Part shown: in pieces, positions 1 to 21,465 of the stretch
How the letters are laid out: every line of letters starts with the position of its first letter
Numbering within the stretch: position 1 is the stretch's first letter
Origin: a virus
IMG/VR virus record: IMGVR_UViG_3300045988_163663
Length of the DNA: 64,000 nt
Reading direction: 5' to 3' (one strand)
The notes under the pieces: generated by a model
Told to the model about the DNA's origin: nothing
Database searches by the model: none
What the model saw: the letters and a program-made list of their open reading frames with translations, nothing else
Made by a program: the position numbers and the translations under genes

Positions 1-27
1 AACAGAAGAACCGCACGCAAGGAAGCT

Positions 28-324
28 ATGATGAACACCATCTTTCACATCAACGATGCCATGAACAGGGTCAAATTCTCTGACCCTGATGGCGAAGCCA
101 CCTTTCACAAGCTGCTGGATCAGAAGGACTATATTGCACGGCAGATTGCTAAGGCAAACTACACTGAATCCTCGATGAAGAGCGACCATATGGAGCTGGA
201 ACGTATTTTCGCTGATATGGACGAATGCGGTTGTTCTAAATGGGTCAAGTGGGAAGTCGAACGGCTGGCAGCAAGTCGGCGTCGCTGGACTATTGCAACA
301 AGCAAGCAGATCTGGTTGAGCTAA
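28..324 (+). CDS. hypothetical protein
   Basis: ORF 98 aa, TAA stop, early GC-richer block. Confidence 0.45.
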   Translation: MMNTIFHINDAMNRVKFSDPDGEATFHKLLDQKDYIARQIAKANYTESSMKSDHMELERIFADMDECGCSKWVKWEVERLAASRRRWTIATSKQIWLS

Positions 325-359
325 TAGCTCAACCAGAATATCAGAAAGGGGATAACATT

Positions 360-548
360 ATGTACTCTATCTATAATCACACGACTGGCCAGTATGGCAC
401 AATCTACCGTAGCCTGACCGCAGCACGAGCCATGGCACATGCTTACAGTCTATGGGCACGGAACGACAGAGATGTCGTTGATATGCAGACTGGTGAAGTC
501 ATGAGCACATTCGAGAAAGGCAAAGAAACTTACAGAGCCAAGGGTTAA
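360..548 (+). CDS. hypothetical small protein
   Basis: ATG at 360 preceded by GAAAGGGGA; 62 aa; TAA stop. Confidence 0.4.
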   Translation: MYSIYNHTTGQYGTIYRSLTAARAMAHAYSLWARNDRDVVDMQTGEVMSTFEKGKETYRAKG

Positions 549-582
549 AACCCTTGGCTTCCAATAGAAAGGATGGTACACT

Positions 583-882
583 ATGGCAACTGCACGAAAT
601 CCCTATGCTGAGATCCGTTTTCTTGACAAGAACAATGTTCAAACTGATTATTGCAGATGGCAATTATCCACTACATTCAACTGCCCTTGGCAGCCTGCCT
701 TTTACCGCGAACTTGAAGAAAAGCTCTACATCATGCAGGAACTGGAAATCGTAGGGTTCGGCAATCGGTCTGCGGTATTTACTTCTGGTCTGCTGACTAC
801 CTACCATTTCACAAGTTATCAGATGGTGCAGTGCATTGAACATATGGCAGACCACCTGACGTTAGTGGTGAGGGACATTTAA
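583..882 (+). CDS. hypothetical protein
   Basis: ORF 99 aa after AGAAAGGATGG leader. Confidence 0.45.
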   Translation: MATARNPYAEIRFLDKNNVQTDYCRWQLSTTFNCPWQPAFYRELEEKLYIMQELEIVGFGNRSAVFTSGLLTTYHFTSYQMVQCIEHMADHLTLVVRDI

Positions 883-950
883 GTCCCTCTACCGCTTACC
901 AACCGCACAATCGAGCACATGAATTGAATTTTCGGAAAGGAATTTTTGAA

Positions 951-1104
951 ATGAAAAATCTCAAACTGGCGTTGACCCTATCCGGCATTATAATTTTCCT
1001 CTGGGTCAGCATTTCATTTTGCAATGTAGTGGCACATAACAATCCGGCGGAAGGGGCTTATGAATATCCCTCTTGGAACTTTTTTGCGATGATGGAGGAT
1101 TGAA
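951..1104 (+). CDS. small hydrophobic protein (MKN-start family)
   Basis: 50 aa ORF with TM-like segment; TGA overlaps next ATG (GGATTGAAATGA). Confidence 0.35.
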
Positions 1105-1299
1105 ATGAAAAATCAGCATAGCGAAGTCATTAAAATGTTCAATGACCATACTCAGGTAATTATAAAGGAGGCGTTCGACGACCCTATTGACGCCGACTAC
1201 TATGAATACCATTTAGATTTACTTGAGATCCACTACCAGAGATACAGCCGCGGCGAGCTACTGTACGAAGAAAATGCACCGGAGGAGCGTTTGAAATGA
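1105..1299 (+). CDS. hypothetical protein, MKNQH paralog 1
   Basis: Starts MKNQH; same GAAATGAAAAATCA context as 951 and 1296. Confidence 0.45.
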   Translation: MKNQHSEVIKMFNDHTQVIIKEAFDDPIDADYYEYHLDLLEIHYQRYSRGELLYEENAPEERLK

Positions 1300-1541
1300 A
1301 AAATCAACATAGATGGTCTGGTGAATGGACACAGGGGGGAGCCCTTGGAGCACATGACCTCTTTACTCTCAACGGGGAATGGGATGATATTCTCTATATC
1401 CCAGTTGGTGCAGAGGGCTGGGCGGATGGCTCTAATGCTTTCAACCTCTCAACCCAGGAGTTTGAAATCATTCCCCAGCATTGGGAAGTCTTTAAGGTAG
1501 ACCTTGATAGGTCTAGGGCAAATTGGAGTGAAGAGGGGTAA
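1296..1541 (+). CDS. hypothetical protein, MKNQH paralog 2
   Basis: Starts MKNQH; translationally coupled TGAAATGA. Confidence 0.45.
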   Translation: MKNQHRWSGEWTQGGALGAHDLFTLNGEWDDILYIPVGAEGWADGSNAFNLSTQEFEIIPQHWEVFKVDLDRSRANWSEEG

Positions 1542-1574
1542 GACCCTCTTCACCAACAGAAAGGAATTGATAAT

Positions 1575-1886
1575 ATGATTAACATCCGCACAATCAAGAA
1601 GCTGGCTGATGGCGATGGTCTGACCCTTAAGAATGGAAAAATCAAGAGGTACAAGAGTGGCTATCAGGTAGCCACTAATGGCGTCGAGGTCATAAGCCCT
1701 GAAATGGCAATACAGGCGGTTCGAGAGTTCAAAGGCACTTGCGGCGTTTGGGTTGAAAATGGCAGATATTACATTGACATTTCCAAACGAGTTTCCACAA
1801 AACGCGAGGCGGTTGAAATTGGCAAGAAATGTAATCAGCTTTCGATTTACAGATGGCGTGGCAATCCGGCTTACCTTTACATTTAA
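1575..1886 (+). CDS. hypothetical protein
   Basis: ORF 103 aa after AAAGGAATTGATAATATG leader. Confidence 0.45.
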   Translation: MINIRTIKKLADGDGLTLKNGKIKRYKSGYQVATNGVEVISPEMAIQAVREFKGTCGVWVENGRYYIDISKRVSTKREAVEIGKKCNQLSIYRWRGNPAYLYI

Positions 1887-1892
1887 TTCCAT

Positions 1893-1920
1893 ATGGGGCT
1901 GGAAATCAGCCCCATTTTTC
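1893..1920 (+). terminator. rho-independent terminator
   Basis: GGGGCTG-gaaat-CAGCCCC hairpin followed by TTTTT. Confidence 0.6.
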
Positions 1921-2212
1921 TATCTTTTGGAAATGAATATTTATACATTTCAAAATGAATATTCATTTTCTTTAATTCATCATCACTTTAATCAAATGAA
2001 GTTCCTCGCCGGGGCGTGGCGAAATTGCTATATCCACAGCAGGCTCGCCACGCCCCGCATTTTCCATTTAATACCAATTCCGAATATTTCCAGCCAAATT
2101 TTACCATATCTGACATTATGTTCCATTTCCCATATCCTACCAGCTTATGGTATATAATTCCATACCATTTATTTCCAAAATCTTTGTGCATATTGACGAA
2201 TAAAAAAATTTG

Positions 2213-2242
2213 ACTTTCCTATTGACATTTGCCATAGGGTGT
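2213..2242 (+). promoter_or_regulatory. sigma70-like promoter (TTGACA-18-TAATAT)
   Basis: Consensus -35 and -10 hexamers; GTTCCnnnGGAAC hairpin at transcript start. Confidence 0.45.
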
Positions 2243-2298
2243 GCTAATATATAATTGTTCCAAGGGAACAGATAAAAAATGAAATGGAGATACAAAAA

Positions 2299-2460
2299 AT
2301 GACTACTGAAAGAATCGCTGAACTGCTGAACGAATGGATTGATAATGACCATGATTTCAGTGCGGAATCCATCAATGACTTCTGCAACACATATGCCCGC
2401 AACTACGACGAGTATATGGGTCTGTGGTACACAGTCTGCGGTTGCATCGAGGAGGACTAA
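2299..2460 (+). CDS. hypothetical small protein
   Basis: 53 aa ORF (MTTERIAELL...), TAA stop. Confidence 0.35.
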   Translation: MTTERIAELLNEWIDNDHDFSAESINDFCNTYARNYDEYMGLWYTVCGCIEED

Positions 2461-2612
2461 CATCATGTTTGAATTTGAAATGTACAACGTCAACACGGGT
2501 GAAACGGAAACTGCATATGGCTACTCCCTAGCAGACGCTAGGGAGAGAAGCCCAAAGTATGAGAGCCGCGAATGGGTTTGTCTAATGTCTACTTATATTG
2601 ATTAAGGGGGAA

Positions 2613-2807
2613 ATGAAAATGAAAATGTCTGAATTTGCAAACAACATTCTTGATAAGAAAATGCTGATTGAACTTATTAAACACCTTCCTTCTTGTGAAG
2701 CCTGTCCTTTTCAGAAGGCTTGTGAGAAAGCGGTTATTGATAATCCGGATGAATCTTGCGAACAGTTCCTTAACCGTTGGATTGAAGATGATAGGAATGA
2801 GGGCTAA
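2613..2807 (+). CDS. small Cys-rich protein
   Basis: SCEACPF...C...C motif; similar small Cys protein at 6116. Confidence 0.4.
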   Translation: MKMKMSEFANNILDKKMLIELIKHLPSCEACPFQKACEKAVIDNPDESCEQFLNRWIEDDRNEG

Positions 2808-2837
2808 AAAGCCCTCTTCCAAAAGGAGGAAATTAAA

Positions 2838-3161
2838 ATGGATATTACAAAATTGCAAGTCAGTCAGCATATCAAGGAAGACCGGCTAGACAGATATGTT
2901 GAAATTCAAATGAATACCGGACTTGGCGAACCTGTTGCAAAATTCAAATATGAGGACAAATGGCAGATTATTACAAGCACAGGAGTGATTTTGATTACAG
3001 ATAGCCGGATGGAATTTCTAATCACATTATATTATGTCAACATGGACAAAGCAACTGCAATTTTCAGACGAAACGGGCAGATGAAAATGCCGAAAGTGGT
3101 ATATGAAGCAATTCAGAAGAACATGGCAAAAAAGCTAATTAAACATAGAAAGGAAAAATAA
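2838..3161 (+). CDS. hypothetical protein
   Basis: ORF 107 aa with AAGGAGGAAATTAAAATG RBS. Confidence 0.45.
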   Translation: MDITKLQVSQHIKEDRLDRYVEIQMNTGLGEPVAKFKYEDKWQIITSTGVILITDSRMEFLITLYYVNMDKATAIFRRNGQMKMPKVVYEAIQKNMAKKLIKHRKEK

Positions 3162-3163
3162 AA

Positions 3164-3394
3164 ATGAAAATCGAATTTGCACAGAAAAAAGAATTTAGAC
3201 ATTTCGCTTCCTTGGAAGTTGGAACTGTTTTCCGCGACCCAAGGACAGACACAATTCATATGAAAACAGAATGTATTGACAATGAGGGCGATGAAATTAA
3301 CGCAATTGATTTAGCTACCGGAGAATTTGACTGTTTCCCTGATGATGCAAAAGTCTACGCCGTAGAAGCTACACTGAATATTAAGGAGTGGTAA
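3164..3394 (+). CDS. hypothetical protein
   Basis: ORF 76 aa. Confidence 0.4.
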   Translation: MKIEFAQKKEFRHFASLEVGTVFRDPRTDTIHMKTECIDNEGDEINAIDLATGEFDCFPDDAKVYAVEATLNIKEW

Positions 3395-3396
3395 AA

Positions 3397-3606
3397 ATGG
3401 AAGGAGATAAGACGTGGAAATATCTGGTAATTAACTTCTTCCCCACAAAAGACTGGCCGCGTCTGTTTTTTGTAGATGCCTCGTGCCGTTCAGAAGCTGA
3501 ATCCCATATTCAGAAGCACTGTGGAAAAGACTATATGTTAGTCGAAAATGATGAACCTATCGCAAGAGTTCTTGACGCTTCCGAAATTCCGCATTATAAA
3601 TTCTAA
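3397..3606 (+). CDS. hypothetical protein
   Basis: ORF about 69 aa from ATGGAAGGAG. Confidence 0.4.
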   Translation: MEGDKTWKYLVINFFPTKDWPRLFFVDASCRSEAESHIQKHCGKDYMLVENDEPIARVLDASEIPHYKF

Positions 3607-3787
3607 AATCAATTTGAGTTTCCTCCCATATTTTGGGAGGAAATTCTTATTTGAAAATTATAGAAAAAAATAATATAATTTTTTATATAAAAAAAATAAT
3701 TTTTATTTCTGTTTCAATTCTATAATTTTCCAGTCGAAAAATCAAATGCGGAAAATTTTGGCAATCCCATAATTTGGGAATTCATTT

Positions 3788-3817
3788 GAGCCAGCCGCGA
3801 TCCAACGCCGCGGCTGG
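3788..3817 (+). repeat. GC-rich hairpin of early intergenic cassette (copy 1)
   Basis: GAGCCAGCCGCGatccaacgCCGCGGCTGG; same architecture at 5965, 7676, 9968, 11761. Confidence 0.6.
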
Positions 3818-3935
3818 AATTTCGCGAATTAAAGTGCTAACGTAAAAAAGTTTTCCAAATCCTTCCAGCCCAGCCCTTGGAAATTTTTCCCAAAATCTTT
3901 GTGTAATTTGACGAAAGTATTTTCCATTTTATGTC

Positions 3936-3964
3936 TTGACATTTGGCTTGCCCTGTGCTATACT
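3936..3964 (+). promoter_or_regulatory. sigma70-like promoter (TTGACA-17-TATACT)
   Basis: Consensus hexamers upstream of 3998 gene. Confidence 0.45.
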
Positions 3965-3997
3965 ATAAACAATCCAAGAGGAAAGGAACTGATTAAA

Positions 3998-4165
3998 ATG
4001 ACTGACCGCGAAGCCCTCGACCAAATTCTGGAACATCTGAATGGGAACTTGCAATCTATTGTTGCTGATGAATCAACATATGTCGAAATTGAGAACGCCT
4101 GTTTAGGCGAAGACATTATGTTTGAATTTGACAAAAATGGAAATATTTTGTCAATCGGTTCTTGA
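3998..4165 (+). CDS. hypothetical small protein
   Basis: 55 aa ORF MTDREALDQ... Confidence 0.4.
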   Translation: MTDREALDQILEHLNGNLQSIVADESTYVEIENACLGEDIMFEFDKNGNILSIGS

Positions 4166-4179
4166 AAGGAGAATCTGAT

Positions 4180-4563
4180 ATGAAAGTCTATATGGCTGGT
4201 GCGTTCTTCCGTCCTGAAACAAAATCAAGAATTGATTCATATGCGGCTGGTTTCCGGCGGCTTGGGTATGATGTATTTGTGCCACAAGAACATACAGTCC
4301 CGAACGCTTGGGAGATGTCGCAAGAGGATTGGGCAAGGGAAGTTTTCAAAATGGATATTGCCGCCATTCAAGAATGTGACATGGTGTTTGTTGTATATGA
4401 TGGTCTGTATTCTGATTCTGGAACAGCTTGGGAAATCGGATATGCTTATGCTCTTGGGAAAAATATCCAAATGAGTGTAAATAATGGTGTAAAAGATATG
4501 TCTATTATGCCATTTGCAAGTGCTTGGGCTATTGAAAACTATAAAAATATTAAATTAGTTTGA
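4180..4563 (+). CDS. nucleoside 2-deoxyribosyltransferase family protein
   Basis: YMAGAFF...DSGTAWEIGYAYALGK signature of the family. Confidence 0.7.
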   Translation: MKVYMAGAFFRPETKSRIDSYAAGFRRLGYDVFVPQEHTVPNAWEMSQEDWAREVFKMDIAAIQECDMVFVVYDGLYSDSGTAWEIGYAYALGKNIQMSVNNGVKDMSIMPFASAWAIENYKNIKLV

Positions 4564-4634
4564 AAAAAACACTTGACAAATTTGGTTGAACCTGTTATAA
4601 TAAAGATACTCCAAAAGAGAAAGGAAATGATAAA

Positions 4635-5108
4635 ATGATTAAGGAATTATGTTTCGATCTTGATGGAACTCTGGTTGACCTCTATGGTGTGGAAGATTGG
4701 CTTGATAAAATTCGAGCCTATGACCCTACACCCTATCAGACCGCCGAACCGCTGGTTGATATGGCAGAACTTGCTTGTCTGCTCCGTAGCTTGCAGAACT
4801 GCGGTATCAATGTCGCAGTTATCACTTGGCTGTCAAAAGAGCCGAACAAGCAGTATGATGATGAAGTCAGAAAAGCAAAACGAGCTTGGCTGAAAGAATA
4901 TGGTTTTCCATTTGACAGTCTGCGATGTGTAGCTTATGGAACGCCGAAGCATAAGGTTGAAGCCGCAAGACTTGCTGATGATGAAGAAGCCCTGATTTTT
5001 GATGATGATGCAAGAGTCCGCAGGGATTGGGACTTGGGCGGAGCAATCGACCCGACTAAGGTTGACATTCTGGAAGTATTGAAAGAAATTTTGAATGGGC
5101 TGGAATAA
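4635..5108 (+). CDS. HAD-superfamily phosphatase (5'(3')-nucleotidase-like)
   Basis: FDLDGTLVD HAD motif I; K and DD motifs downstream. Confidence 0.6.
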   Translation: MIKELCFDLDGTLVDLYGVEDWLDKIRAYDPTPYQTAEPLVDMAELACLLRSLQNCGINVAVITWLSKEPNKQYDDEVRKAKRAWLKEYGFPFDSLRCVAYGTPKHKVEAARLADDEEALIFDDDARVRRDWDLGGAIDPTKVDILEVLKEILNGLE

Positions 5109-5132
5109 TCCAGCCCATAAGGGGAAAATGAA

Positions 5133-5351
5133 ATGAATGATATTCTTAAAGAGCTTACAGACTTGGCAAACCAGATTGGAAAATTAGCTGGAAAAATTTA
5201 CTGTGAAAAAAAGAATATCTCAAATCCTTATGATTTTACAAACGCACAAGAATTAAGTGATAAACTGTTTGAAATTCATTCTGATTTACAAAATGACTGT
5301 TATACTTTGGCTGTTGCCATTTGGGGAGACGATGAAGATGATGATTCCTAA
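5133..5351 (+). CDS. hypothetical protein
   Basis: ORF 72 aa. Confidence 0.4.
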   Translation: MNDILKELTDLANQIGKLAGKIYCEKKNISNPYDFTNAQELSDKLFEIHSDLQNDCYTLAVAIWGDDEDDDS

Positions 5352-5604
5352 AAAAATTACTGTCAAATATTCAGGCTATGATGAAAAAAGAGTATATTAT
5401 AACAATGAATTAGATTTTCGCACAGAACGTGATGCCGATTCATTTATTTTAGACATGAAAAGACTTATGTTCGGAGTAAAGACCTACACAAAAATTATTA
5501 CTTGGGGAGAAGAATCAAATGAATGACGAACAGCTTGACATTTTGCTTGAAGAAGCAACGGACATTAAAATTTTAATTGCCTTGGGCTGAAAGGATGGAT
5601 AAAA

Positions 5605-5892
5605 ATGGAAACAAAATTTATTTGGGTAGTTCATTTTGAAGAAGCAGATTTCAACGACTTGGACTGTGCATTCGACAGTTTTGAAATGGCGAAAGAAGCA
5701 GTCCAGACAATTTTTGACAAAGTTTCCGCAGTAAATCCTGCTTGGCAGAATCTGATGCTGGATGATGAAGATATCGAAGATGAATGGGCTGTTTTCAGTT
5801 TTGATTATATCGGAGAAGATGCCAAATTCTTGCTGAAACCAAATGTTGGTATTACAGTTTTTCCTTGTCCTCTCAATTCACTTCCTATTTGA
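5605..5892 (+). CDS. hypothetical acidic protein
   Basis: ORF 95 aa. Confidence 0.4.
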   Translation: METKFIWVVHFEEADFNDLDCAFDSFEMAKEAVQTIFDKVSAVNPAWQNLMLDDEDIEDEWAVFSFDYIGEDAKFLLKPNVGITVFPCPLNSLPI

Positions 5893-5964
5893 AAAATTTG
5901 GGAATCCAGATTTTGGATTCCCATTTTCTTACTTGTCTATTGGAATTAAATGGAAATTCTATTT

Positions 5965-5996
5965 GAGCCTGCCGCGAACCAACGCCGCGGCAGGCA
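5965..5996 (+). repeat. GC-rich hairpin of early intergenic cassette (copy 2)
   Basis: GAGCCTGCCGCGaaccaacgCCGCGGCAGGC then ATTTTAGATTTT. Confidence 0.6.
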
Positions 5997-6115
5997 TTTT
6001 AGATTTTCAGCATTTTCACCAATTTTTTACCCCAAATTTTGTGCAAAATGACAGTTGACTTTTTTCCCGATACCTGCTATACTATTGGTACAAGGTTAAG
6101 GGAGGGAATACCTAA

Positions 6116-6289
6116 TGACTTCTGACGAAAAACTTAAATACTGCATTGAGCAATGGGTCGAAACATTTGATGATTGTGCTTGTTGTCCTCTGATGTTCAA
6201 ATGCCGAGATGATGAAGATATCCAAGGCATTGACTGCATTGAATGTGGTGAAAAAATTATTGATTGGTTAAAGGAGAATGAACTATGAA
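6116..6289 (+). CDS. small Cys-rich protein
   Basis: DDCACCPLMFKC...CIECG; 57 aa. Confidence 0.4.
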
Positions 6290-6698
6290 AAATCTGTATT
6301 GGAAACGTACTTACATGAAAATGAATGATGGTCAAGAGCCTATTCTGAACTGGGACCCGCAACTTGTTTATCGCCCCGAACCGCCTGAAAATGAAGTATT
6401 GACAATTAAAAACACAACAGACCTTGCAGTAGCTATTTGCAGTAACTATGTCAATGGTTCTATTAAGCGTGGGACTTTTGACAGAAGAATCAAAAAATTC
6501 CATATCGAGGATATGAGATACTGGAAAGGCGAAGAATACAAGCCCGAAAAAATCAGTTTCCCTGTTTCACGTGAAACAATTTATAAACCAATTGATTATG
6601 ACATGAGTTTCAAGAAGTTGTCGGGAGAATTGTCCGCAGAAGATTTTATCCGCTGGATGAAAGACAATGGAATGAACACTTGCCCGATGATTAAATAA
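6285..6698 (+). CDS. hypothetical protein
   Basis: ORF 137 aa. Confidence 0.45.
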   Translation: MKNLYWKRTYMKMNDGQEPILNWDPQLVYRPEPPENEVLTIKNTTDLAVAICSNYVNGSIKRGTFDRRIKKFHIEDMRYWKGEEYKPEKISFPVSRETIYKPIDYDMSFKKLSGELSAEDFIRWMKDNGMNTCPMIK

Positions 6699-6766
6699 AT
6701 TAGGGGTTGACAAACAACCCCTAATGTGATACAATAACTATACAAATTAAGAAAGGAATTGATACC

Positions 6767-7138
6767 ATGAATTATGGAATTTACTCTGTATTGAAAAAAC
6801 TCACCGAGGGTTCTGAATTATCAAGCTATGACAAGTACGTTCTTGAAAGAGCTTGTCAAAAGCATGAAGAAGAACTTGAACGTCGGCACGCTATTCAGGC
6901 AGAAAAAGCTGAAAAGATTAAGGGTCTAATCCTTTTGGTTTTGAATCATGCAGATAAAGCATTGACTCCGACAGATATGCAGTTTGATATTTACCGAGCA
7001 GTCAACGAAGAAATTCCTTGTCAGGCTATCGCATGGTATGCTATTCAGCTTGCCTATTTTGATAACAAACTTAACTGTACTCACAAAAGAAATAAAACTT
7101 ATTATACCATTAAGAAAGAGAATAAAGCCCTATTGTGA
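6767..7138 (+). CDS. hypothetical protein
   Basis: ORF 123 aa after AAGAAAGGAATTGATACCATG. Confidence 0.45.
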   Translation: MNYGIYSVLKKLTEGSELSSYDKYVLERACQKHEEELERRHAIQAEKAEKIKGLILLVLNHADKALTPTDMQFDIYRAVNEEIPCQAIAWYAIQLAYFDNKLNCTHKRNKTYYTIKKENKALL

Positions 7139-7174
7139 TACAATAGGGCTATCAAAAGAAAGGAATTGATAAAA

Positions 7175-7624
7175 ATGAAAGCAACTGGCATTATTCGCAG
7201 AATTGATGACCTTGGACGTGTTGTTATTCCGAAAGAAATTCGCCGTAGCTTAAAGATTCATGAGGGTGACCCACTTGAAATCTTTATTGAAAATAACGGC
7301 GTTTATTTTCAGAAGTATTCAACACTTGGTTCCCTTGCAGAAGAACCCTTACGAATTGCTATTAAAATGGCATCAAATTCCGGTTTGCGTCCTATTGCAA
7401 TTTATGACGCTGATACAAAATTGCGAGGTATGGAAAACTTTCCGTCCTATGTCTCAAAGACCTGGGAAGATGAAGACGAACCATTTGAATACAATGCCAC
7501 TTACGGCGTTTACCCGATTGACGCAGATGGTGACCGCGTGGGATATGTGGTTTGCGATTCACAAGACATGGGCTGTGAAGTGATGATGATTGCCCGCTAC
7601 CTTGGTACTGTAATTGAGGATTAA
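7175..7624 (+). CDS. AbrB/SpoVT-type DNA-binding protein
   Basis: N-terminal GIIRRIDDLGRVVIPKEIRR swapped-hairpin motif. Confidence 0.65.
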   Translation: MKATGIIRRIDDLGRVVIPKEIRRSLKIHEGDPLEIFIENNGVYFQKYSTLGSLAEEPLRIAIKMASNSGLRPIAIYDADTKLRGMENFPSYVSKTWEDEDEPFEYNATYGVYPIDADGDRVGYVVCDSQDMGCEVMMIARYLGTVIED

Positions 7625-7631
7625 AAAAAAA

Positions 7632-7675
7632 TAACACAAGGGGCTTGATAAAATAAGTCCCTTGTGTTATTTTTT
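7632..7675 (+). terminator. rho-independent terminator
   Basis: AACACAAGGGG...CCCTTGTGTT 10-bp stem followed by TTTTTT. Confidence 0.55.
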
Positions 7676-7706
7676 GAGCCTCGCGGCCACGGTCCAGCCG
7701 CGAGGA
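7676..7706 (+). repeat. GC-rich hairpin of early intergenic cassette (copy 3)
   Basis: GAGCCTCGCGGccacggtccaGCCGCGAGG. Confidence 0.55.
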
Positions 7707-7826
7707 TTTTTAGATTTTTGGCACATTGCACAATTTTTTACTCACAAATTTGGTTATTCTGCCAATAGACAAAAATCCTGAAACCGTGTATAATTAAGAT
7801 ACAAATTAAGAAAGGAATTGATAAAA

Positions 7827-8138
7827 ATGATTATGGACGCCGCTATTGTTAAAGCAATGAATTTGCAGGACTTGAACGACTACATAAATAACAGGAAGCC
7901 GGAAGAATTACAGACCCTAATTGCATTAGCCAAGGAAAGGATTAACCAATTAGACCAAGAGAAAGAAGCAAAGTACATGGCCGCAATCATCAAATCTGTT
8001 CAGGATTATCTGGATAATGTTGGAGATTTGACATTCCATGTTGAGTATGAAGACGAAGATGGCCAGGACGCGGCAACTGACATCACCGTAGACAATCTGA
8101 ATCCGCCTGCTGGTGGCAATGGAATCATTTATATTTAA
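7827..8138 (+). CDS. hypothetical protein
   Basis: ORF about 103 aa. Confidence 0.4.
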   Translation: MIMDAAIVKAMNLQDLNDYINNRKPEELQTLIALAKERINQLDQEKEAKYMAAIIKSVQDYLDNVGDLTFHVEYEDEDGQDAATDITVDNLNPPAGGNGIIYI

Positions 8139-8150
8139 GGAGTGATACAA

Positions 8151-8465
8151 ATGCTTACAAATCCGGGTTTTTATTTTGCTTGGTTAGTTTTAACCATTCT
8201 TCCTTTAATGATCGCCATTGTTGCTCCTGAAACTTGGCATGGTAGAGTTGTTGCTGTTCTGATTGCGATTGCTATTGGTTTTGGCGTTGCAACTCTATTG
8301 TACAAAGAACAAGAAAGCAATCATGACCGCTGGAATAATGGTTATTGTGAATGCGGCGGCGAGTATCAATTTTCAAGTGCTACAAATTGGCGTGGTTCAA
8401 AAAACTATTATTACACTTGTGATAAGTGCGGGCATACAGAAGAATTTTCTTCACTCATGAGATAA
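8151..8465 (+). CDS. membrane protein with C-terminal zinc-ribbon
   Basis: Two TM-like segments then CEC...CDKCGH. Confidence 0.4.
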   Translation: MLTNPGFYFAWLVLTILPLMIAIVAPETWHGRVVAVLIAIAIGFGVATLLYKEQESNHDRWNNGYCECGGEYQFSSATNWRGSKNYYYTCDKCGHTEEFSSLMR

Positions 8466-8748
8466 AAAACGCCGGTTGGGAAAAAAATTATAAAAAAAAA
8501 TTCCCAACCGGCTTGACAAATTAAAAAAAATTTGATATAATAATAGTACCAAAAGGAAAGGAATTGATACTATGATAGCATTGATGAAATACGAATGTGG
8601 ATTAAGATTCACAGGGCTTGTTTTTGAAGATGAAGAAACAGCGGAAAAATACATGAAAGAGCATTGGATAAATCCAAAAGAAGTAAAGTTAGTACCAGCA
8701 ACTGGATATTTCAAAAATGGTGAAATTAAGTGAAAGGAATTGATAATC

Positions 8749-9159
8749 ATGACTGAAATTACAACCTATGAGTGCGACTTCTGTGGGCAGGTGTTCGACG
8801 ATGAAGAAGAATGTATTCATCACGAATGGAAATGCAGATACGAAGATTTATGTAAATCTGAAAATTGCGAACCGCTGAAACTGTTCGACCTTGAAGGTAA
8901 GGAAATCAATGGTTTCGATTATCCTAAATGTGATGAAATTGGAGCGGTGGAAATTCATTCTTATGCCCAAGCACAATTCATCAATGATTATTTTGATGAA
9001 ATGGGCTATGAAGTTCCCATTAAAATTGTCATGGGACTGATTGACTACTATGGCTTGTGGTATTATGACCCTGAATACCACTATGGCGAGTGGCGGTCTT
9101 ATGAAGAAGTTCTTGAAGATATTCAGGAAATTGGCAAGAAATTTAATCAAGGGGCTTGA
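8749..9159 (+). CDS. zinc-ribbon containing protein
   Basis: CDFCGQ...CIHHEWKC motifs. Confidence 0.4.
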   Translation: MTEITTYECDFCGQVFDDEEECIHHEWKCRYEDLCKSENCEPLKLFDLEGKEINGFDYPKCDEIGAVEIHSYAQAQFINDYFDEMGYEVPIKIVMGLIDYYGLWYYDPEYHYGEWRSYEEVLEDIQEIGKKFNQGA

Positions 9160-9214
9160 CAAGCCCCTTGACCTGTGATATAATTGATTTATCAAAAGGA
9201 AAGGAAATGATACA

Positions 9215-9490
9215 ATGAATTATCAGGTTATTTTCATGGACAATGAAGGGACTGTTCAGACGGGTATCTGGAATCAGGACAGAGATGAAATTATCTGCGG
9301 CTGTTGTGGTGCAACAATCGAATCGGGCGATTTTGTCCTGCTTCACATCTATGATGAATGGTTGAACATCACCGATGAAATCTGCGGGGATGACGGAGAA
9401 ATTCTCAATGAGATTGAAGAAAAGGTCGATAGACTAACTACCTCTGAAATTGAAGCAATTCTTGATGGAAAGAAGGATTTCAACGAATGA
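9215..9490 (+). CDS. hypothetical protein
   Basis: ORF 91 aa with CGCCGA motif. Confidence 0.4.
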   Translation: MNYQVIFMDNEGTVQTGIWNQDRDEIICGCCGATIESGDFVLLHIYDEWLNITDEICGDDGEILNEIEEKVDRLTTSEIEAILDGKKDFNE

Positions 9491-9638
9491 AAGGAAAGAG
9501 ATTTAATAAGGGCGGTTATACCGCCCAAGTCATCCAGTGGGATGATACAGACGCCTTGTGGATTTGCCAATACTCTTGGGGCGAATATTTCTATGAAGAT
9601 GATGAATTTATCAGGGAAAATCTGGTGGAGGATTGAAA

Positions 9639-9959
9639 ATGGCTTTTTTTATTAAGGTTATTATGGCTTGGTTTAGAAGAAATGAAATGCCAGTTGTAAT
9701 TTATGGTGCAGATGGTCTTCCCGTTACAAGTTATAATACCACGGTAAAAGATTACTGGTTTCCAAAAAATTTAGGAGAAGCATCAAAAATTGAAAATGGC
9801 TGGTATTGTTATCCATTGAATGCCAATGGTGAATACTGTGGTTGTATTTGCTGGGAATGGTGGGAAGATGATGATGATTTTGAACAGCCAGACATTTATG
9901 ATGTTTTGAACATCTGTAATCTTCTGGAAATTGCTTGCGGTTTGGATGAAAATTCCTAA
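9639..9959 (+). CDS. hypothetical protein
   Basis: ORF about 106 aa. Confidence 0.4.
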   Translation: MAFFIKVIMAWFRRNEMPVVIYGADGLPVTSYNTTVKDYWFPKNLGEASKIENGWYCYPLNANGEYCGCICWEWWEDDDDFEQPDIYDVLNICNLLEIACGLDENS

Positions 9960-9967
9960 AAAAAAAT

Positions 9968-10012
9968 GGGCGGTTCGTTTGAGCCGCCCAATTACCAACG
10001 CAATTGGGCGGC
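9968..10012 (+). repeat. GC-rich hairpin of early intergenic cassette (copy 4)
   Basis: GAGCCGCCCAATTaccaacgcAATTGGGCGGC, then TTGCACAA...TTGTGCAA inverted repeat at 10028-10065. Confidence 0.55.
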
Positions 10013-10278
10013 ATTTTAATTTTTAAGCATTTTGCACAATTTTTTCATGCAAATTTTGTGCAATTTGCCAATAGACAAGAATCCTGAAACATGGTATAAT
10101 TCATAATGTCAAGAGGGAACAGCAACTAAAAGTGCTTGGCATCATTAGCCGGGCTACACAACTTCCGCGGTTCGTGTGTAAAAAAAATAAAATTCCCTCT
10201 TGACAATCCCCACCTGATGTGCTATAATTAAGTCAACAAGTGAAGGAAACACTTAAAAACCAGAAAGGAATTGATACC

Positions 10279-10665
10279 ATGGAAAAGATTAAAGCCCCCA
10301 CCCGCAAGGAAATGTTCACCCGCGTTTCTGATTTCCTCGCAGAACATGAAGCAGATACTGCCCTGATTGATTTTGTCAATCACCAGATTGAGCTTCTGGA
10401 CAGCAAGAAGGAAAACAAGAAGCAGGCCAAAGAGCAGGAAGAAAACGCCGCCTACTCTGATGCAATCTATGAGCAGATGGCATTCGAGCGTAAGTACAGC
10501 GTCGCAGAGCTGATGAAGGAGCTTCCGGCTGTCAGCGATTGGAACGCCAACCATGAAACCGAGCTGTCGGTTCAGAAGCTCGCAAGTCTGTTGAAGCCGC
10601 TTGTCGATGGTGGCAAGGTCATTAAGACCACGGAGAAGCGTCGCGTGTTCTACACCAAGGCGTGA
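10279..10665 (+). CDS. hypothetical protein, paralog family X copy 1
   Basis: C-terminus ...GKVIKTTEKRRVFYTKA shared with 13118 and 41435. Confidence 0.5.
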   Translation: MEKIKAPTRKEMFTRVSDFLAEHEADTALIDFVNHQIELLDSKKENKKQAKEQEENAAYSDAIYEQMAFERKYSVAELMKELPAVSDWNANHETELSVQKLASLLKPLVDGGKVIKTTEKRRVFYTKA

Positions 10666-10714
10666 TAAACCAAGGGGGGGCGGAGAAATCCGCCCCACTA
10701 ATTAAGGAGAGCCT

Positions 10715-11113
10715 ATGAGAGAATTGACTGAAAAGGAATGGGCAAAAGTCGATAATCTTGTTGACAAGCTGGAATGTTCGATTGATGAAGCAGTTGACAT
10801 TCTGGACGCCGACAAAGCTATTGACCGTAATCAAAAGGTTGATTTTGATTTAAGTCCAGAAGAACATAAGCAAGCAATGAAACTTGCTAATGTCAAAGAG
10901 CATACGGTCAAGAAAAGCAATGTGTACCGCCCGCGTAAGCCTAATGAAATTAAAGGTGCGATTATCGCCGGTTTGTCAAAATATTTGGCAGAAATGGCAG
11001 ATTTTGAAGTGTTGGATGAAGAAATCACCAACAAAGAGCGGACGATAATGTTTACAAGTGGCGGCGAACGGTTTGAATTGACCCTTATCCAGAAAAGAAA
11101 GCCGAAAAGTTAA
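10715..11113 (+). CDS. hypothetical protein, paralog family Y copy 1
   Basis: Follows family X gene as in second copy at 13588. Confidence 0.45.
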   Translation: MRELTEKEWAKVDNLVDKLECSIDEAVDILDADKAIDRNQKVDFDLSPEEHKQAMKLANVKEHTVKKSNVYRPRKPNEIKGAIIAGLSKYLAEMADFEVLDEEITNKERTIMFTSGGERFELTLIQKRKPKS

Positions 11114-11169
11114 AGAAAATGGGGATTTTTCCCCATTTTCTTCCAAAAAAATTGAAAAAGGTGATAAAA

Positions 11170-11736
11170 ATGGCAAAAAATCCCACGTATTCTGATTATG
11201 TTTCGTCCAACGATTTTGAGGGTGCAAAGGAAAGATTTGACAATGCAAACAAGCGTTGGAAGTCTCATTGGTTTGAAGCTTGCGAAGAAATCTTCAACGC
11301 TTGCAAGGATTGGGCAAAAAAGTATATTCTGGACAAGGTAAATCAAGCAATCCTTATCATTGGTGAGTTTGTTACCAAGAGACGGCCAAAAGAAGAAGGA
11401 ACAAGTAACACCTACCTAATCAAAATGTTTGATGAAGCAGGCAAATGGGTTTTTACAAAAATTGGTAAGGCTAATATAATTGTAAAGAGGATGCAAGGGC
11501 TTCTTAAACGTGAATACAAAAGAGGCGGCAGGGTAAAGATTTCTAACATTGAAATTGTAAAGTCTTACCAGTTGCCGAATGATGACCTTGCCCAAGTTCT
11601 GGAAAACCTAATGAGAGCCTATTTCAGAAAAACTCGGAAATTTATTCCAAACGATAGGTTCGAGGCGTTTGAACCGACTGCCGAAGATTTACAAGTTTTT
11701 GAAAATAATTACAATTTGGTAATGGCGAACGCATAG
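11170..11736 (+). CDS. hypothetical protein
   Basis: ORF about 188 aa from MAKNPTYSDY. Confidence 0.45.
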   Translation: MAKNPTYSDYVSSNDFEGAKERFDNANKRWKSHWFEACEEIFNACKDWAKKYILDKVNQAILIIGEFVTKRRPKEEGTSNTYLIKMFDEAGKWVFTKIGKANIIVKRMQGLLKREYKRGGRVKISNIEIVKSYQLPNDDLAQVLENLMRAYFRKTRKFIPNDRFEAFEPTAEDLQVFENNYNLVMANA

Positions 11737-11760
11737 GGGCAGAAATGCCCCTTTTTATTT

Positions 11761-11793
11761 TGAGCTGCCCGGCCACGACCTAGCCGGGCAGAA
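11761..11793 (+). repeat. GC-rich hairpin of early intergenic cassette (copy 5)
   Basis: GAGCTGCCCGGccacgacctaGCCGGGCAG. Confidence 0.55.
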
Positions 11794-12031
11794 TTTCCAA
11801 TATTTACCAGTTTTACCAATTTTTTTACCAAAACCCTGCTTCATTTGATTAAAGTATTAAATCCTTAAAGTGCCGCACTTTACCACATTAAAGTGTTAAA
11901 GCGTGCATAAATATTCATTGAAAATGAATAAATATTCTTCTTGACATTTTGGGCAAGGTGTGATAATATATAAGAGCAATGAGGGAGCGATGGCAAACCC
12001 TGATTGACATTATTAAAAGGATGGAAACCCT

Positions 12032-12889
12032 ATGACTAAACTTGATAAGCGTCGAAAGTATTACCTGATTCTGGATTGTGAGACGGCTACCTTGCCGTAT
12101 GCCGCAAAGTTTCCCGCAGATATGAAGAAGAATGTAGCAATCGCCAAGCCGCTGATTTATGATTTGGGATGGCAGATTGTGGATATTCGGGGCAAGGTCT
12201 ACAAGCGTGCGTCCTATCTCATTTCTGAGATTTTCAGTGTTCCCGCCGTTTTCAATACTGCATATTATGCAAGCAAGCGTCCGATTTATCTTGACCGTCT
12301 AAAAGCCGGAGAAATCAAGCTGACGGACTGGAATACGGCTGTCGCAGAACTGATTGAAGATTTGGACGCTGTTGTAGCTGTTGGAGCATATAACAGTATG
12401 TTCGACTTTAAGAAGGCTATTCCATTCACTGACCTGTATGTTTCCAAGCTGTACTCGCCTGATTTCTTTGAATGGGAATCTTATCAGAATGAACGATGTG
12501 AAGCAATCGCCCATGGAAGCAAGCCCCATTTGCAGAAAGAGTTTGAACCTGATATTTTCCGCTTCCATGGCAAGGCGTATCCGCTGTTTGACCTGTGGGG
12601 CTTGTCTTGTGAACATCTGTTGAATAATCCTGACTATAAGCAGATGTGCTATGATAATGAGTGGAGAACGGCAAGCGGCAAATATTATCCGACTAACGCG
12701 GAAAAGGCATTTGCCTATTGTTTCCAGCAGGAAGATTTTGAAGAAGCACATACTGCAATCGAGGACGCAATCATTGAATCCATGCTGTTTGCCCTCATTG
12801 GAGAAAAGACCAAGCACAAGTTTGAGATGGGTATTGAATATTTCCCCTACAAAAAGTTGGGAAGATTTGACAGTGATTGGGAGCTGTAA
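12032..12889 (+). CDS. DEDDh-type 3'-5' exonuclease (DnaQ-like)
   Basis: LILDCETAT (Exo I), YNSMFDF (Exo II), HTAIEDA (Exo III) motifs. Confidence 0.65.
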   Translation: MTKLDKRRKYYLILDCETATLPYAAKFPADMKKNVAIAKPLIYDLGWQIVDIRGKVYKRASYLISEIFSVPAVFNTAYYASKRPIYLDRLKAGEIKLTDWNTAVAELIEDLDAVVAVGAYNSMFDFKKAIPFTDLYVSKLYSPDFFEWESYQNERCEAIAHGSKPHLQKEFEPDIFRFHGKAYPLFDLWGLSCEHLLNNPDYKQMCYDNEWRTASGKYYPTNAEKAFAYCFQQEDFEEAHTAIEDAIIESMLFALIGEKTKHKFEMGIEYFPYKKLGRFDSDWEL

Positions 12890-13022
12890 AAGGCTCCCAT
12901 CCCTCCCAAAATTTTCATAGCTACGGTATTGAAATTGCCATTCTGACAAATACTTCCAGCGTTCTGCGATACTTCATTCAAGTCGAAAAAAAATCGTGGA
13001 AAATTCAAAATAAGGTATTGAC

Positions 13023-13051
13023 AAATCAATAGGTTTGTGATACAATATAAT
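13023..13051 (+). promoter_or_regulatory. sigma70-like promoter (TTGACA-17-TACAAT)
   Basis: Consensus hexamers; GTTCCaagagagGAAC hairpin at +1. Confidence 0.45.
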
Positions 13052-13117
13052 TGTTCCAAGAGAGGAACACAAAACAAATAAGGGTTGCGACCTACCGCTA
13101 GAAAGGAATTGATAATT

Positions 13118-13495
13118 ATGGAAAAGAAGATTACCTATGCTCAGGCTCTGAACACCGTTCTGAACAATGAGAACATCATCCTTGCATCTGATGTGCGGGA
13201 GAAGCTGGAAGCTCTGCTTGCTTCTGTCTCCAAGAAGTCCGGCGAGAGAAAGGAAACTGCACAGCAGGTGGAGAACGCCGAGATGGTGGAGCGGATTTAT
13301 CAGGAGATGGAAGCCAACCGCACCTACTCTATTGCCGAACTGATTAAGGAACTGCCGGTTGTGGCTGACTTCAATGCCAACCATGAGAATGATATGTCCA
13401 CGCAGAGAATGGCGAATCTGCTCAGAACCCTCGTGGAAGATGGCAAGGTTATCAAGACTACTGAAAAGCGGCGTGTCTATTACACCAAGGCATAA
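13118..13495 (+). CDS. hypothetical protein, paralog family X copy 2
   Basis: ...DGKVIKTTEKRRVYYTKA C-terminus. Confidence 0.5.
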   Translation: MEKKITYAQALNTVLNNENIILASDVREKLEALLASVSKKSGERKETAQQVENAEMVERIYQEMEANRTYSIAELIKELPVVADFNANHENDMSTQRMANLLRTLVEDGKVIKTTEKRRVYYTKA

Positions 13496-13587
13496 GTGAA
13501 AAAGAAGTAAGGGGAGTTTTCTCCCCTTACTTCTCCCAGCTAATTCCAGATAGTTCCCAGCAAAGAAAATTCTAATAGGACGGTAAA

Positions 13588-13950
13588 ATGTCAATGACCG
13601 CTGAAAAGTTGGCAAATTCGCTTAAAATTTCCATTGAAGAAGCTAACCAAGTTTTGGAAATGGATAAGCGAATTGATAGGGGCGAAAAGTTGTTTGAGTT
13701 GCCGCCGGAGTTTGAAGCAGGAGCGAAAAAGGCAAGACGTGCTGACCGGAAGAAAGTGGAAAATGTAAAACGGGAACGCAAACCTGATGAAGATAAAAGG
13801 GAGCTAATCCAGTATTTGGAAAGTTCCTTGGAAGATGCCTACCCTGATTTAGATTTGGGTAATATTACCATTACAAATCCAGAACGAGAAATGGAATTTA
13901 TTTACAATGGAATTAAATACCGGTTGACCCTGATGCGTCCAAGGAAATAA
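13588..13950 (+). CDS. hypothetical protein, paralog family Y copy 2
   Basis: Same gene order as 10715. Confidence 0.45.
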   Translation: MSMTAEKLANSLKISIEEANQVLEMDKRIDRGEKLFELPPEFEAGAKKARRADRKKVENVKRERKPDEDKRELIQYLESSLEDAYPDLDLGNITITNPEREMEFIYNGIKYRLTLMRPRK

Positions 13951-14248
13951 TTGGAATGGGATTTTCTCCCATTCCAATTTTTGGAATTATAATTGGAAAA
14001 TTTTTCCAAGGAAAATATTGGAACAGATGGTAATTTCAGCCGGTCGTCACTGGCAGTGATGACCGGAATTCTAGAAAAACTTACCATATGGCAATTTTTT
14101 GCTCAATCTAGCGGCCTCTCATATGCCGCATGTTTTTCCCGAAACTGGTTCGCTTCGCTCACTATATTTGCAATTTTTAAAAAAATATTTTATAATATAT
14201 ATACAGAATAAAGAGTTCTGAAAATCTTTATAAAGAGGTAATATACAT

Positions 14249-14644
14249 ATGTATGATTTTTATGATCGTCTGATGAAGGGTGAATCCGCAGAGGATATTG
14301 CCAAGAGCATCACTGATGAACTGAACAAGGCACAGGCCAAGAGAACAGAAGAGTTGAAGGCTCAGGCTGAAAAGTCCAAGAGAGATCAGACAATGGCCGC
14401 GGATGCAGAGGCTATCTGCACTGGCTTGGCGAAGTTTGCAAAGGATTACTATGGCTATGACATTGAGGTTAAGCCGGAAGACCTGATGAAGGTTTTTGAT
14501 ATGGCTGATAAGATTGGTCGTGCTATTGAAGACCTTGGTAAGACGGTTGAGAAGCCTGCTGAGAAAGTAAAGGCTAAGGTATACAAGGTCAATGGCTCTG
14601 CTGATGAAGTCATTGATAAGTTCCTTGATATGATGGGGTGGTGA
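14249..14644 (+). CDS. hypothetical coiled-coil protein
   Basis: ORF 131 aa, last gene of GC-richer block. Confidence 0.45.
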   Translation: MYDFYDRLMKGESAEDIAKSITDELNKAQAKRTEELKAQAEKSKRDQTMAADAEAICTGLAKFAKDYYGYDIEVKPEDLMKVFDMADKIGRAIEDLGKTVEKPAEKVKAKVYKVNGSADEVIDKFLDMMGW

Positions 14645-14712
14645 GGAAAAGGGCTTATGCCCTTTTCTTTTTAGCCTAAAATGGAAATTTTTGGAAAGTC
14701 AAATTTGACTTT

Positions 14713-14745
14713 TATAAAAAAATATGATATAATATTAAAAAAAGA
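14713..14745 (+). promoter_or_regulatory. AT-rich phage promoter-like motif (first copy of late family)
   Basis: TTTATAAAAAAATATGATATAATATTAAAAAAAG; family recurs over 20 times downstream. Confidence 0.45.
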
Positions 14746-16779: not shown

Positions 16780-16788
16780 TTTGTTATA

Positions 16789-21043: not shown

Positions 21044-21047
21044 TCAA

Positions 21048-21108: not shown

Positions 21109-21130
21109 AAAATGAGGGAGAAAATAAATT

Positions 21131-21463: not shown

Positions 21464-21465
21464 AA

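Follow-up and report, generated by a model that had tools for sequence, protein, structure and literature searches.

A native, conserved GC step closes a promoter-dense gene block in a gut phage that reads TAG as glutamine

The host-takeover module of SPO1, the early region of T4, and the pre-early region of T5 are promoter-dense early regions of large virulent phages. In the published model for phages that have recoded a stop codon, early genes are kept in the standard code and a code switch follows (Borges et al., bioRxiv 10.1101/2021.08.26.457843). In one group described there, the large Firmicutes-associated Sapphire clade, 26% of genes contain in-frame TAG. Moreover, the PeSL promoter-terminator cassettes of T4-type phages are short stem-loop and early-promoter repeats located between small genes (Arbiol et al. 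2010, PMC2839356; Comeau et al. 2014, PMC4122927). The present study concerns 64,000 nucleotides of the virus record IMGVR_UViG_3300045988_163663 (hereafter, the window, to which coordinates refer unless a contig is named; negative positions lie to its left), in which guanine-plus-cytosine (GC) content falls abruptly near 14.65 kb, at the right edge of a block of small genes. The discontinuity is real, native, and conserved, and represents a new, well-delimited example of known principles. We lean, by a modest degree, towards the view that this block is an immediate-early, host-takeover-type gene set, readable in the standard code, of a phage that otherwise uses TAG for Gln, and that the step marks its right edge.

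The phage is gut-derived, has a genome of approximately 189 kb, and reads TAG as Gln. It resembles the phages of Borges et al. in this codon assignment, in the share of genes with in-frame TAG (25 of 94 credible genes, or 27%, against 26% in Sapphire), in a genome size of the order given for the large clades (the list of mean sizes in the preprint is ambiguous), in its origin from a non-westernized (Peruvian) gut sample, and in a TAG-free block located ahead of recoded genes, among which are tail-fiber-like genes. It possibly belongs to the large Firmicutes-associated Sapphire-type clade. However, TAG use on the plus strand begins here in metabolic genes (MetK) and not only in structural or lysis genes, and TAG is densest in an endonuclease/regulator cassette and in homing endonucleases. 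Furthermore, the TAG-free block coincides with a compositional island that has promoter and ribosome-binding site (RBS) types of its own, a feature absent from the account of Borges et al. The stop-reading tRNA has the anticodon UUA, no lysis genes were identified, and the window contains no hallmark genes of the clade. Similar to the early regions of SPO1, T4, and T5, the block contains many small ORFans, has a strong host-type promoter for each gene or pair of genes, and is clustered and co-oriented beside a divergent junction. In contrast to these regions, with which no sequence homology was found, it also differs from the remainder of its genome in GC content at third codon positions (GC3) and in code use, it has a nearly invariant 13-nt translation-initiation leader, and its early timing is predicted from such signals. 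Promoter-dense early modules and a partition of the code between early and late genes have both been described, and no new principle is involved.

Likelihood segmentation placed the best single GC change-point of the window at 14,660 (log-likelihood ratio [LLR] 102), with 40.0% GC to the left and 33.5% to the right, and the 500-nt GC profile, at 0.41 near 14.25 kb, was down to 0.25 by 14.75 kb. The step and the GC-richer left block reported in a preliminary description of the window were thus both confirmed, the latter at synonymous and non-coding sites. GC3 was 0.424 in the left block, whereas three gene sets to its right had values of 0.292, 0.152, and 0.212 and the AT-rich cassette that adjoins the step had 0.201; GC content at first and second codon positions was alike in the left and right gene sets, indicating that the contrast is largely synonymous. 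Non-coding GC was 0.37 on the left and 0.25 on the right. Among the codons previously listed as typical of the left block, GCC and CTG were enriched there, as was CCG, whereas CGC was no commoner than in the adjacent block. The right block was previously described as approximately 70% AT, which is not the case: it is 66.5% AT and heterogeneous, with 25.8% GC at 14,661–17,140, 35.0% at 17,141–42,820, 29.4% at 42,821–55,380, and 38.6% at 55,381–63,280. The first of these segments is a 2.5-kb opposite-strand cassette of 26% GC that sharpens the step; beyond it, GC content returns to 0.35–0.47 at 17–20.5 kb.

The left border of the GC-rich DNA was located on a Logan contig (L015; L numbers denote related contigs and loci) that is identical to the window and reaches 5,069 nt further left. 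GC content there is 0.25–0.35 and rises to 0.44–0.47 at L015 position 4210, which is window position −859 (LLR 85). The GC-rich DNA is an island of 15,519 bp (−859 to 14,660; 40.2% GC) with AT-rich DNA on both sides. Its left border coincides with tandem consensus promoters at L015 4200 and 4311, and its right border with the terminator 3′ of the gene at 14249–14644. To the left of the island lies an AT-rich three-gene unit with one in-frame TAG and a promoter resembling the class II promoters described below, followed by a divergent minus-strand block with a YonG_N-domain gene. Although the left border is sharp, no second AT-rich cassette was found at it.

We consider a chimeric assembly, in which two unrelated sequences were joined at approximately 14.65 kb, to be practically inconceivable. 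The composition step itself, and nothing else, points in this direction. The junction is 100% identical in a European Nucleotide Archive (ENA) scaffold of 188,486 bp, in the SPAdes contig NODE_75 of ERZ1749213, another ENA assembly record, and in Logan contigs. The window is 100% identical to four records over 7–20 kb spanning 14.65 kb, and exact-protein look-ups placed this region on contigs of 188.5–189.5 kb from several Peruvian gut metagenomes (Obregon-Tito data). The contigs begin at differing points of one sequence, which is what circular assembly of a phage genome would give. Relatives with the same junction were also found: strains at 98, 95, and 85–92% nucleotide identity, among them an IMG/VR genome of 188,474 bp, are collinear across it, as are over 10 related contigs drawn from different samples, and one 14.9-kb alignment at 97.8% identity passes through it. 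Since independent assemblies and collinear strains keep the junction, an assembly join is excluded, and the alternative of an assembly or recombination junction in the preliminary description is refuted. The layout fits the known early/late organization of recoded phages rather than an assembly error. A megablast search of 10–20 kb against 50,697 GenBank phages returned no match, and neighbors at the protein level were remote (29% to Enterococcus phages and 25% to Phass-1), with an RNA ligase at 41% to that of Bacillus PBC2-like phages. Eight of 11 related contigs were in Clostridia bins of metagenome-assembled genomes (MAGs); Treponema and Nanosyncoccus bins also occurred, and these bins are a weak lead on the host. 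The host is probably a member of Clostridia.

The island is set apart by its promoters. Sites matching the sigma-A/sigma-70 consensus TTGACA-17-TATAAT (class I, scored as matches out of 12) with at least 11 matches number 12 between 3.6 and 14.7 kb, lie without exception on the plus strand, and mostly have an extended −10 TG (TGnTATAAT). Their density is roughly one per 1–2 small genes. The island has six occurrences of the strict pattern against an expectation of 0.03, and the other 49 kb of the window have two. Most class I promoters feed a conserved 5′ untranslated region, AAAGGAATTGATA-N2-3-ATG. The leader AAAGGAATTGATA is present in eight exact copies and two with one mismatch at 1.5–13.1 kb, all in the island and on the plus strand, and ends 2–3 nt 5′ of the start codon at all copies. 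Both promoters and leader had been noted for the left block in the preliminary description and stand. For several class I promoters, the −35 box is part of the terminator hairpin ahead of it, in either the loop or the stem, and hairpin-promoter composites are located at 6699–6735 and 9145–9184. An Rfam search with the 250-nt GC-rich leader at the island start gave no family (fold z-score −1.0).

A second promoter class serves the genes to the right. The motif ATAAAAAAATATTATAAAATATATAT was found at 11 sites with up to three mismatches (0.01 expected), which supports the view that the right block has a different reiterated promoter, except that the first site, at 14,177, is inside the left block, upstream of the last GC-rich gene (14249–14644; inverted in the relative L018). 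The class II consensus is ttGAAAaat-ATAAAAAAATATTATA(A/T)AATATATATAAAG. A weight matrix built from the 11 sites matched on the plus strand from 14,177 to 53,326; it gave a single weak match in the island and another match on the minus strand. Many sites are directly 3′ of a terminator hairpin (e.g., 21080, 23482, 27963, 32572, and 39668). Since two of them, at 51082 and 53326, precede tRNA genes, the motif is a transcription signal and not a translation signal. In all 19 sites examined, TATAAT or TAAAAT follows exactly 17 nt after a TTGAAA-like element (14) or TTTATT (5). Judged from this layout, class II appears sigma-A-compatible; its spacer is entirely A/T, its start region is conserved, and it is no obviously foreign promoter type. 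The genes behind class II promoters include RNA repair genes, MetK, chorismate mutase, and the tRNA array. As the genes adjacent to the step are of these kinds, they are not late genes, and with all 19 motif sites fitting sigma-A, the earlier proposal that the right block comprises late genes dependent on a phage factor is not supported. The AGGAGG-type RBSs reported for the right block were confirmed, with the GGAG type in 31 of 64 right-hand genes versus 4 of 27 island genes. The regulatory signals change at differing points and not all at 14.65 kb.

Regarding the genetic code, open reading frames (ORFs) cover 84% of the right part when TAG is treated as a sense codon and 68% otherwise. The gene sets past 14.65 kb have 59 in-frame TAG codons, one of which falls at an invariant Gln of MetK (Table 1). 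In contrast, the island has none in 2,777 codons and its genes end in TAA or TGA, in agreement with the preliminary description. The recoding ascribed to the right block is real; however, it begins on the plus strand only at 25,565. The 16 genes at 17.1–25.5 kb have no in-frame TAG (one ORF-level TAG there is upstream of the called start), and TAG use climbs as GC3 falls (Spearman rho = −0.43). A single island gene ends in TAG, at 11734. In a relative at 98% identity, a 1-nt insertion just 3′ of this codon changes the downstream frame, and the downstream sequence is, therefore, without coding constraint. This TAG is most likely a true stop, as judged from the sequence context, and is better evidence for a standard-code island than the absence of TAG. 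The called length of the gene varies among records and pipelines (188, 197, or 227 aa); single-code gene callers mis-annotate such genomes in this manner. In the recoded part, TAG at 34288–34290 ends the gene at 32626–34290, and the class II promoter of the next gene follows within 36 nt. TAG may also be a leaky stop there.

The preliminary description assigned the left block to early genes transcribed by the host RNA polymerase, and the consensus promoters, TAG-free reading, small ORFans, a SpoVT/AbrB-like regulator, and the retention of the promoter-saturated block in distant relatives all point to this assignment. We speculate that unmodified host RNA polymerase would fire the class I promoters upon infection and that their products would be made by the naive host translation system, whereas TAG-containing genes might become translatable only once the suppressor function of the phage has accumulated. 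The raised GC3 of this block may then stem from a constraint or history of its own, distinct from that of the remaining genome, which drifts towards AT and is buffered by tRNAs. Several points weigh against this interpretation. The timing of expression is deduced entirely from sequence. With 19 of 19 class II sites being sigma-A-like, the host polymerase could read both promoter classes from the start. The non-coding DNA of the island is also GC-richer; therefore, codon-level selection alone cannot explain its composition. A logistic model of TAG use on GC3, based on right-hand genes, expects only 2.2–3.0 TAG codons in the island, and the probability of none is 0.05–0.10. Furthermore, the TAG-free zone on the plus strand continues past the island to 25.5 kb, the only stop-reading tRNA in the window has the anticodon UUA and not CUA, and the early block is AT-richer than its flanks in two of seven informative relatives (L020 and L022).

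The exonuclease-like protein of the island has 2,426 homologues in metagenomes. In L018, at 77% identity, 14 class I promoters and 10 leaders are followed by an AT-rich minus-strand cassette and then by class II sites, which is the same layout, and the partition by promoter class in the window was also seen in L013, L014, and L018. At loci with 47–66% protein identity, the gene lies within a plus-strand block of small genes with 8–27 strict-consensus promoters (TTGAC[AT]-N16-18-TA[TC]AAT). The leader and the class II motif are limited to the closer lineage. Three loci (L015, L020, and L022) extend to the left end of the block, and the same YonG_N-type gene adjoins it in each. Seven cases were informative on GC content, and in five of them the block exceeds its flank: the window (by 0.067 on one side and 0.108 on the other), L018 (by 0.039), L024 (by 0.052), L028 (by 0.085), and L034 (by 0.024). 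The promoter-saturated block is old and conserved, and its GC contrast is frequent, not universal. We also observed that the 8–27 strict promoters of L020, L022, L024, L027–L029, L031, L033, and L034 are on one strand within approximately 4–16 kb; this density of about one per small gene is unusually high and shared across the family, in human and ruminant guts. Some contigs among the loci at 47–66% identity were binned to MAGs of Lachnospiraceae, Ruminococcus, Acutalibacteraceae, and other Eubacteriales.

These relatives bear on the question of ancestry. The island might be a module gained by recombination from a GC-richer standard-code phage, in which case its composition, promoters, and leader would simply be those of the donor and its border would be an old recombination junction without present regulatory meaning. 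Both borders are sharp (LLR 102 and 85), the GC increase extends from synonymous sites to non-coding ones, a pattern expected of ancestry more than of codon selection, and the island has its own style of promoter, RBS, and terminator. A homing endonuclease and a strain-variable cassette are at the border, and the island orthologues in L020 and L022 are approximately 8–10 GC points poorer. However, all relatives examined have the block in synteny, from 98% nucleotide to 47% protein identity, with no patchy presence, and its GC elevation recurs in several independent relatives. Identity to L013 is 87.7–92.5% inside the island and 88.4–93.2% outside, and the dinucleotide distance (delta*) between the island and the adjacent block is 89, within the 76–151 of other blocks of this phage (29–36 between halves of one block). 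We regard mosaic ancestry as unlikely, and recent acquisition of the island is also unlikely. The two evolutionarily distinct compartments of the preliminary description are similarly too simple: the composition step is real, whereas the island has AT-rich DNA on both sides, the same divergence rate as its neighbors, and a dinucleotide signature within the range of the phage itself.

The opposite-strand cassette at the step encodes a GIY-YIG endonuclease and small putative DNA-binding proteins beside an array of iterons (Table 1), and TAG accounts for 63% of its Gln codons. Among strains, the endonuclease is kept and the inner cassette is swapped for non-homologous DNA. At least four allelic forms exist, each pairing its own short-repeat array with its own small DNA-binding protein: besides the form in the window, L002 has ATGTCCCAT repeats at 11495–11742, L012 has palindromes at 1393–1478, and L018 has 22-nt iterons at 13997–14083 and 14811–14942 that flank a 220-aa protein (positions on the respective contigs). 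The GIY-YIG gene is conserved in the cassettes of the window, L002/L008, and L012, and none was called in L018. These forms suggest specificity swapping of an origin or operator module. Iteron origins, such as lambda O/ori, SPP1 G38P/oriL, and those of iteron plasmids, similarly have clustered short repeats by a DNA-binding protein in very AT-rich DNA, and the cassette alleles likewise pair different repeats with different proteins. In contrast to these origins, the cassette protein has no significant match to an initiator family, GC skew showed local flips with gene orientation only and no global switch at the cassette, and there was no fold match: an AlphaFold model of the helix-turn-helix (HTH) protein from a shallow alignment (predicted local distance difference test score, 64) had no Foldseek match in PDB below E = 1. 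An NCBIfam scan added nothing further on this protein, and Rfam gave nothing credible on the cassette, only chance microRNA-like matches on the iterons. Replication-family matches were weak (phrog_186 DnaD-like, E = 2e-3; phrog_775, E = 8e-6). A replication origin with its initiator is our leading guess for the cassette, although we would place it slightly below an even chance; the iteron array may equally be an operator or a partition site.

Ordinary heterogeneity of the genome, combined with an inserted AT-rich element of this type (a selfish element with an endonuclease, or the replication origin together with its initiator), could create most of the step; the left and right blocks would otherwise differ no more than other modules of the phage. 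The cassette is the lowest-GC segment by the step and GC content recovers beyond it, the tail-fiber-like segment is, at 38.6%, near the island in GC content, and the allele-specific iterons and binding proteins, weak replication-type matches, and high TAG usage described above are in line with such an element. However, the GC3 of the island exceeds that of every other gene set, including the tail-fiber-like genes (0.21), a second sharp border exists on the left without such a cassette, and the promoter class and leader change at the same borders. We consider this explanation as improbable as mosaic ancestry, and prefer the interpretation of the island as an immediate-early block.

The promoter-leader cassettes of the island appear to act as recombination points for gene gain and loss. 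Strain L002 is without the gene at 6767–7138, which sits between two promoter-leader copies, and its sequence is a hybrid of the cassettes at 6690–6764 and 7125–7171, with the crossover in the shared CCCTAATGTGATACAATA; this was the sole indel examined base by base. The cassettes thus resemble PeSL cassettes in being short stem-loop and early-promoter repeats between small genes, and a crossover inside the repeated cassette, as in the difference at 6767–7138, mirrors the PeSL mechanism (PMC2839356, PMC4122927). They differ from PeSL cassettes in their sequences, in the phylum of the host, and in forming two classes in separate genome domains.

Taken together, these elements could describe a family of large gut phages, probably on Clostridia, in which an immediate-early module is insulated at the levels of transcription, translation initiation, and decoding, through saturating sigma-A promoters, the 13-nt leader AAAGGAAUUGAUA, and TAG-free genes of host-like GC3 that would be readable before phage tRNAs and the suppressor are made. 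The promoter-leader cassettes would shuffle genes, and an iteron/initiator origin would form the border, the allelic border cassette itself being written almost wholly in the recoded code. The leader AAAGGAAUUGAUA might serve as the operator for a RegA-like factor that shuts off translation, or as an enhancer suited to ribosomes of the uninfected cell. In its entirety, we view this combination as rather doubtful. If the immediate-early interpretation is correct, the window would offer a clean, sequence-defined case of genome partition in a stop-codon-recoded phage, with one block running on the untouched host and the rest increasingly dependent on phage-supplied decoding. The two promoter classes, the conserved leader, and a TAG acting as a stop are elements with which the timing of the code switch may be tested, and the timing model has so far been based on gene-content correlations.

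Table 1. Positions of the features discussed in the text
Feature	Position	Strand	Remarks
GC-richer island, approximately 35 small genes	1–14660 (from −859)	+	Change-points; GC3 0.424
Class I promoter	3936–3964	+	TTGACA-17-TATACT, with TG
Nucleoside 2-deoxyribosyltransferase	4162–4563	+	Island
Class I promoter (12/12) and leader	4573–4632	+	Leader AAAGGAAATGATA; ATG at 4635
HAD-type nucleotidase	4635–5108	+	Island
Terminator hairpin, promoter, and leader	6699–6764	+	TTGACA in loop, −10 TGTGATACAAT, leader AAAGGAATTGATA; left repeat copy recombined in L002
Promoter-leader repeat, right copy	7125–7171	+	
SpoVT/AbrB-like regulator	7166–7624	+	Island; E = 3e-27
Class I promoter (12/12) and leader	8513–8569	+	
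Hairpin, class I promoter (12/12), and leader	9145–9212	+	
Class I promoter (12/12) and leader	10200–10276	+	
TAG ending an island gene	11734–11752	+	TAG at 11734–11736, the only one; abuts intrinsic terminator
Exonuclease-like protein	12032–12889	+	Island; phrog_20187
Class I promoter (11/12) and leader	13018–13114	+	
First class II promoter	14177–14202	+	Upstream of gene 14249–14644, inside left block
Terminator hairpin closing the island	14650–14672	+	GGGCTTATGCCC, then T-run
AT-rich opposite-strand cassette	14661–17140	−	25.8% GC; inner part strain-variable
Sigma-70-type promoter, approximately 95-nt transcript, and terminator	14705–14836	+	TTGACT-17-TATAAT; candidate small RNA
GIY-YIG endonuclease	15017–15652	−	10 in-frame TAG
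Iteron array	15829–16147		Holds every exact CTTGTAAAA copy in the window (14 within 320 nt, both orientations)
HTH protein, 173 aa	16080–16601	−	5 TAG; weak matches to DUF6291 and sigma-70 region 4
Small DUF5659-like protein	16585–16779	−	
Ribbon-helix-helix (CopG/Arc-like) protein	16789–16941	−	
Class II promoter opening the right-hand plus-strand genes	17101–17126	+	Gene 17157–17624
AT-richer class II-driven genes	17157–25558	+	No credible in-frame TAG
Chorismate mutase	18650–18925	+	
RNA ligase	19108–20517	+	PHA02142-type OB domain
First credible plus-strand in-frame TAG	25565–25567	+	Codon 3 of 25559–25999; strong RBS
MetK	26046–27203	+	
TAG in MetK	26106–26108	+	Codon 21; aligned to invariant Gln of GHPDKxxDQxSD in solved MetK structures
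AAA_33 kinase	29473–30018	+	
RlaP nucleotidyltransferase	36616–37431	+	
Metallophosphoesterase	37629–38408	+	
Approximately 15 tRNA genes	49051–56611	+	Interspersed with HNH and GIY-YIG endonuclease-like genes
tRNA, anticodon UUA	55678–55751	+	Loop AUUUAAU; ochre type (reads UAA, by wobble UAG)
Four large repeat-rich tail-fiber-like proteins	57337–62884	+	Labeled by reading of sequences; 38.6% GC, GC3 0.21; 2, 2, 2, and 5 in-frame TAG

Apart from the genes listed in Table 1, the island is rich in ORFans. One gene pair is tandemly duplicated on the plus strand (10279–11113 and 13118–13950; 49/89 and 44/114 identical residues), and the first gene of each pair stands behind its own class I promoter and leader. 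Just past the step, the sigma-70-type promoter unit at 14705 is aimed at the 3′ end of the minus-strand cassette and may produce a small or antisense RNA. It is 86–100% conserved in relatives, and L018 has three tandem promoters there. The putative 95-nt transcript (14741–14836) matched no Rfam family (fold z = −1.8).

The RNA ligase, AAA_33 kinase, RlaP nucleotidyltransferase, and metallophosphoesterase form a dispersed RNA-repair set, which may be a counter-measure to host anticodon nucleases. The right-hand region also encodes an M28-like peptidase. Three paralogues of approximately 475–555 aa (32626–34290, 39720–41363, and 43854–45281, all plus strand) share a SIHPLDYLTMSDN...CMNW core and Cys-rich C termini; class II promoters precede two of the three SIHPLDYLTMSDN paralogues, and the one scanned (32626–34290) had no Pfam match. 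An isolated 131-aa gene on the plus strand (41435–41830) has 50% GC amid DNA of 31–34% GC and had no match in NCBIfam, the only library scanned. DNA methyltransferase-like (49509–50480) and radical-SAM-like (45962–47305) proteins were recognized by eye only.

No CUA suppressor tRNA was found in the 64-kb window. The UUA tRNA scored 48.5 bits with Rfam and was detected by ARAGORN only at a relaxed threshold, and TAA is the main stop codon here despite this tRNA. When the codon preference of the blocks was compared with the tRNA set of the phage, GTA and CTA fit and GCA and GAA do not; the comparison is confounded by AT content. Within the tRNA array, HNH-like ORFs (51531–52361 and 54727–55359) and a GIY-YIG-like ORF (53705–54328), all on the plus strand, were identified by eye. 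These endonuclease-like ORFs are among the lowest-GC genes (0.25–0.28), and two have in-frame TAG (6 and 2). Codon 6 of the GIY-YIG-like ORF is a TAG at a position that appears to correspond to a Gln of I-TevI (GIYQI). The tRNA at 49051–49199 on the plus strand has an insertion of 73–76 nt in its anticodon loop; the insert (49088–49160) was itself called as tRNA-Arg(GCG) by ARAGORN at a relaxed threshold and looks like a tRNA nested in a tRNA.

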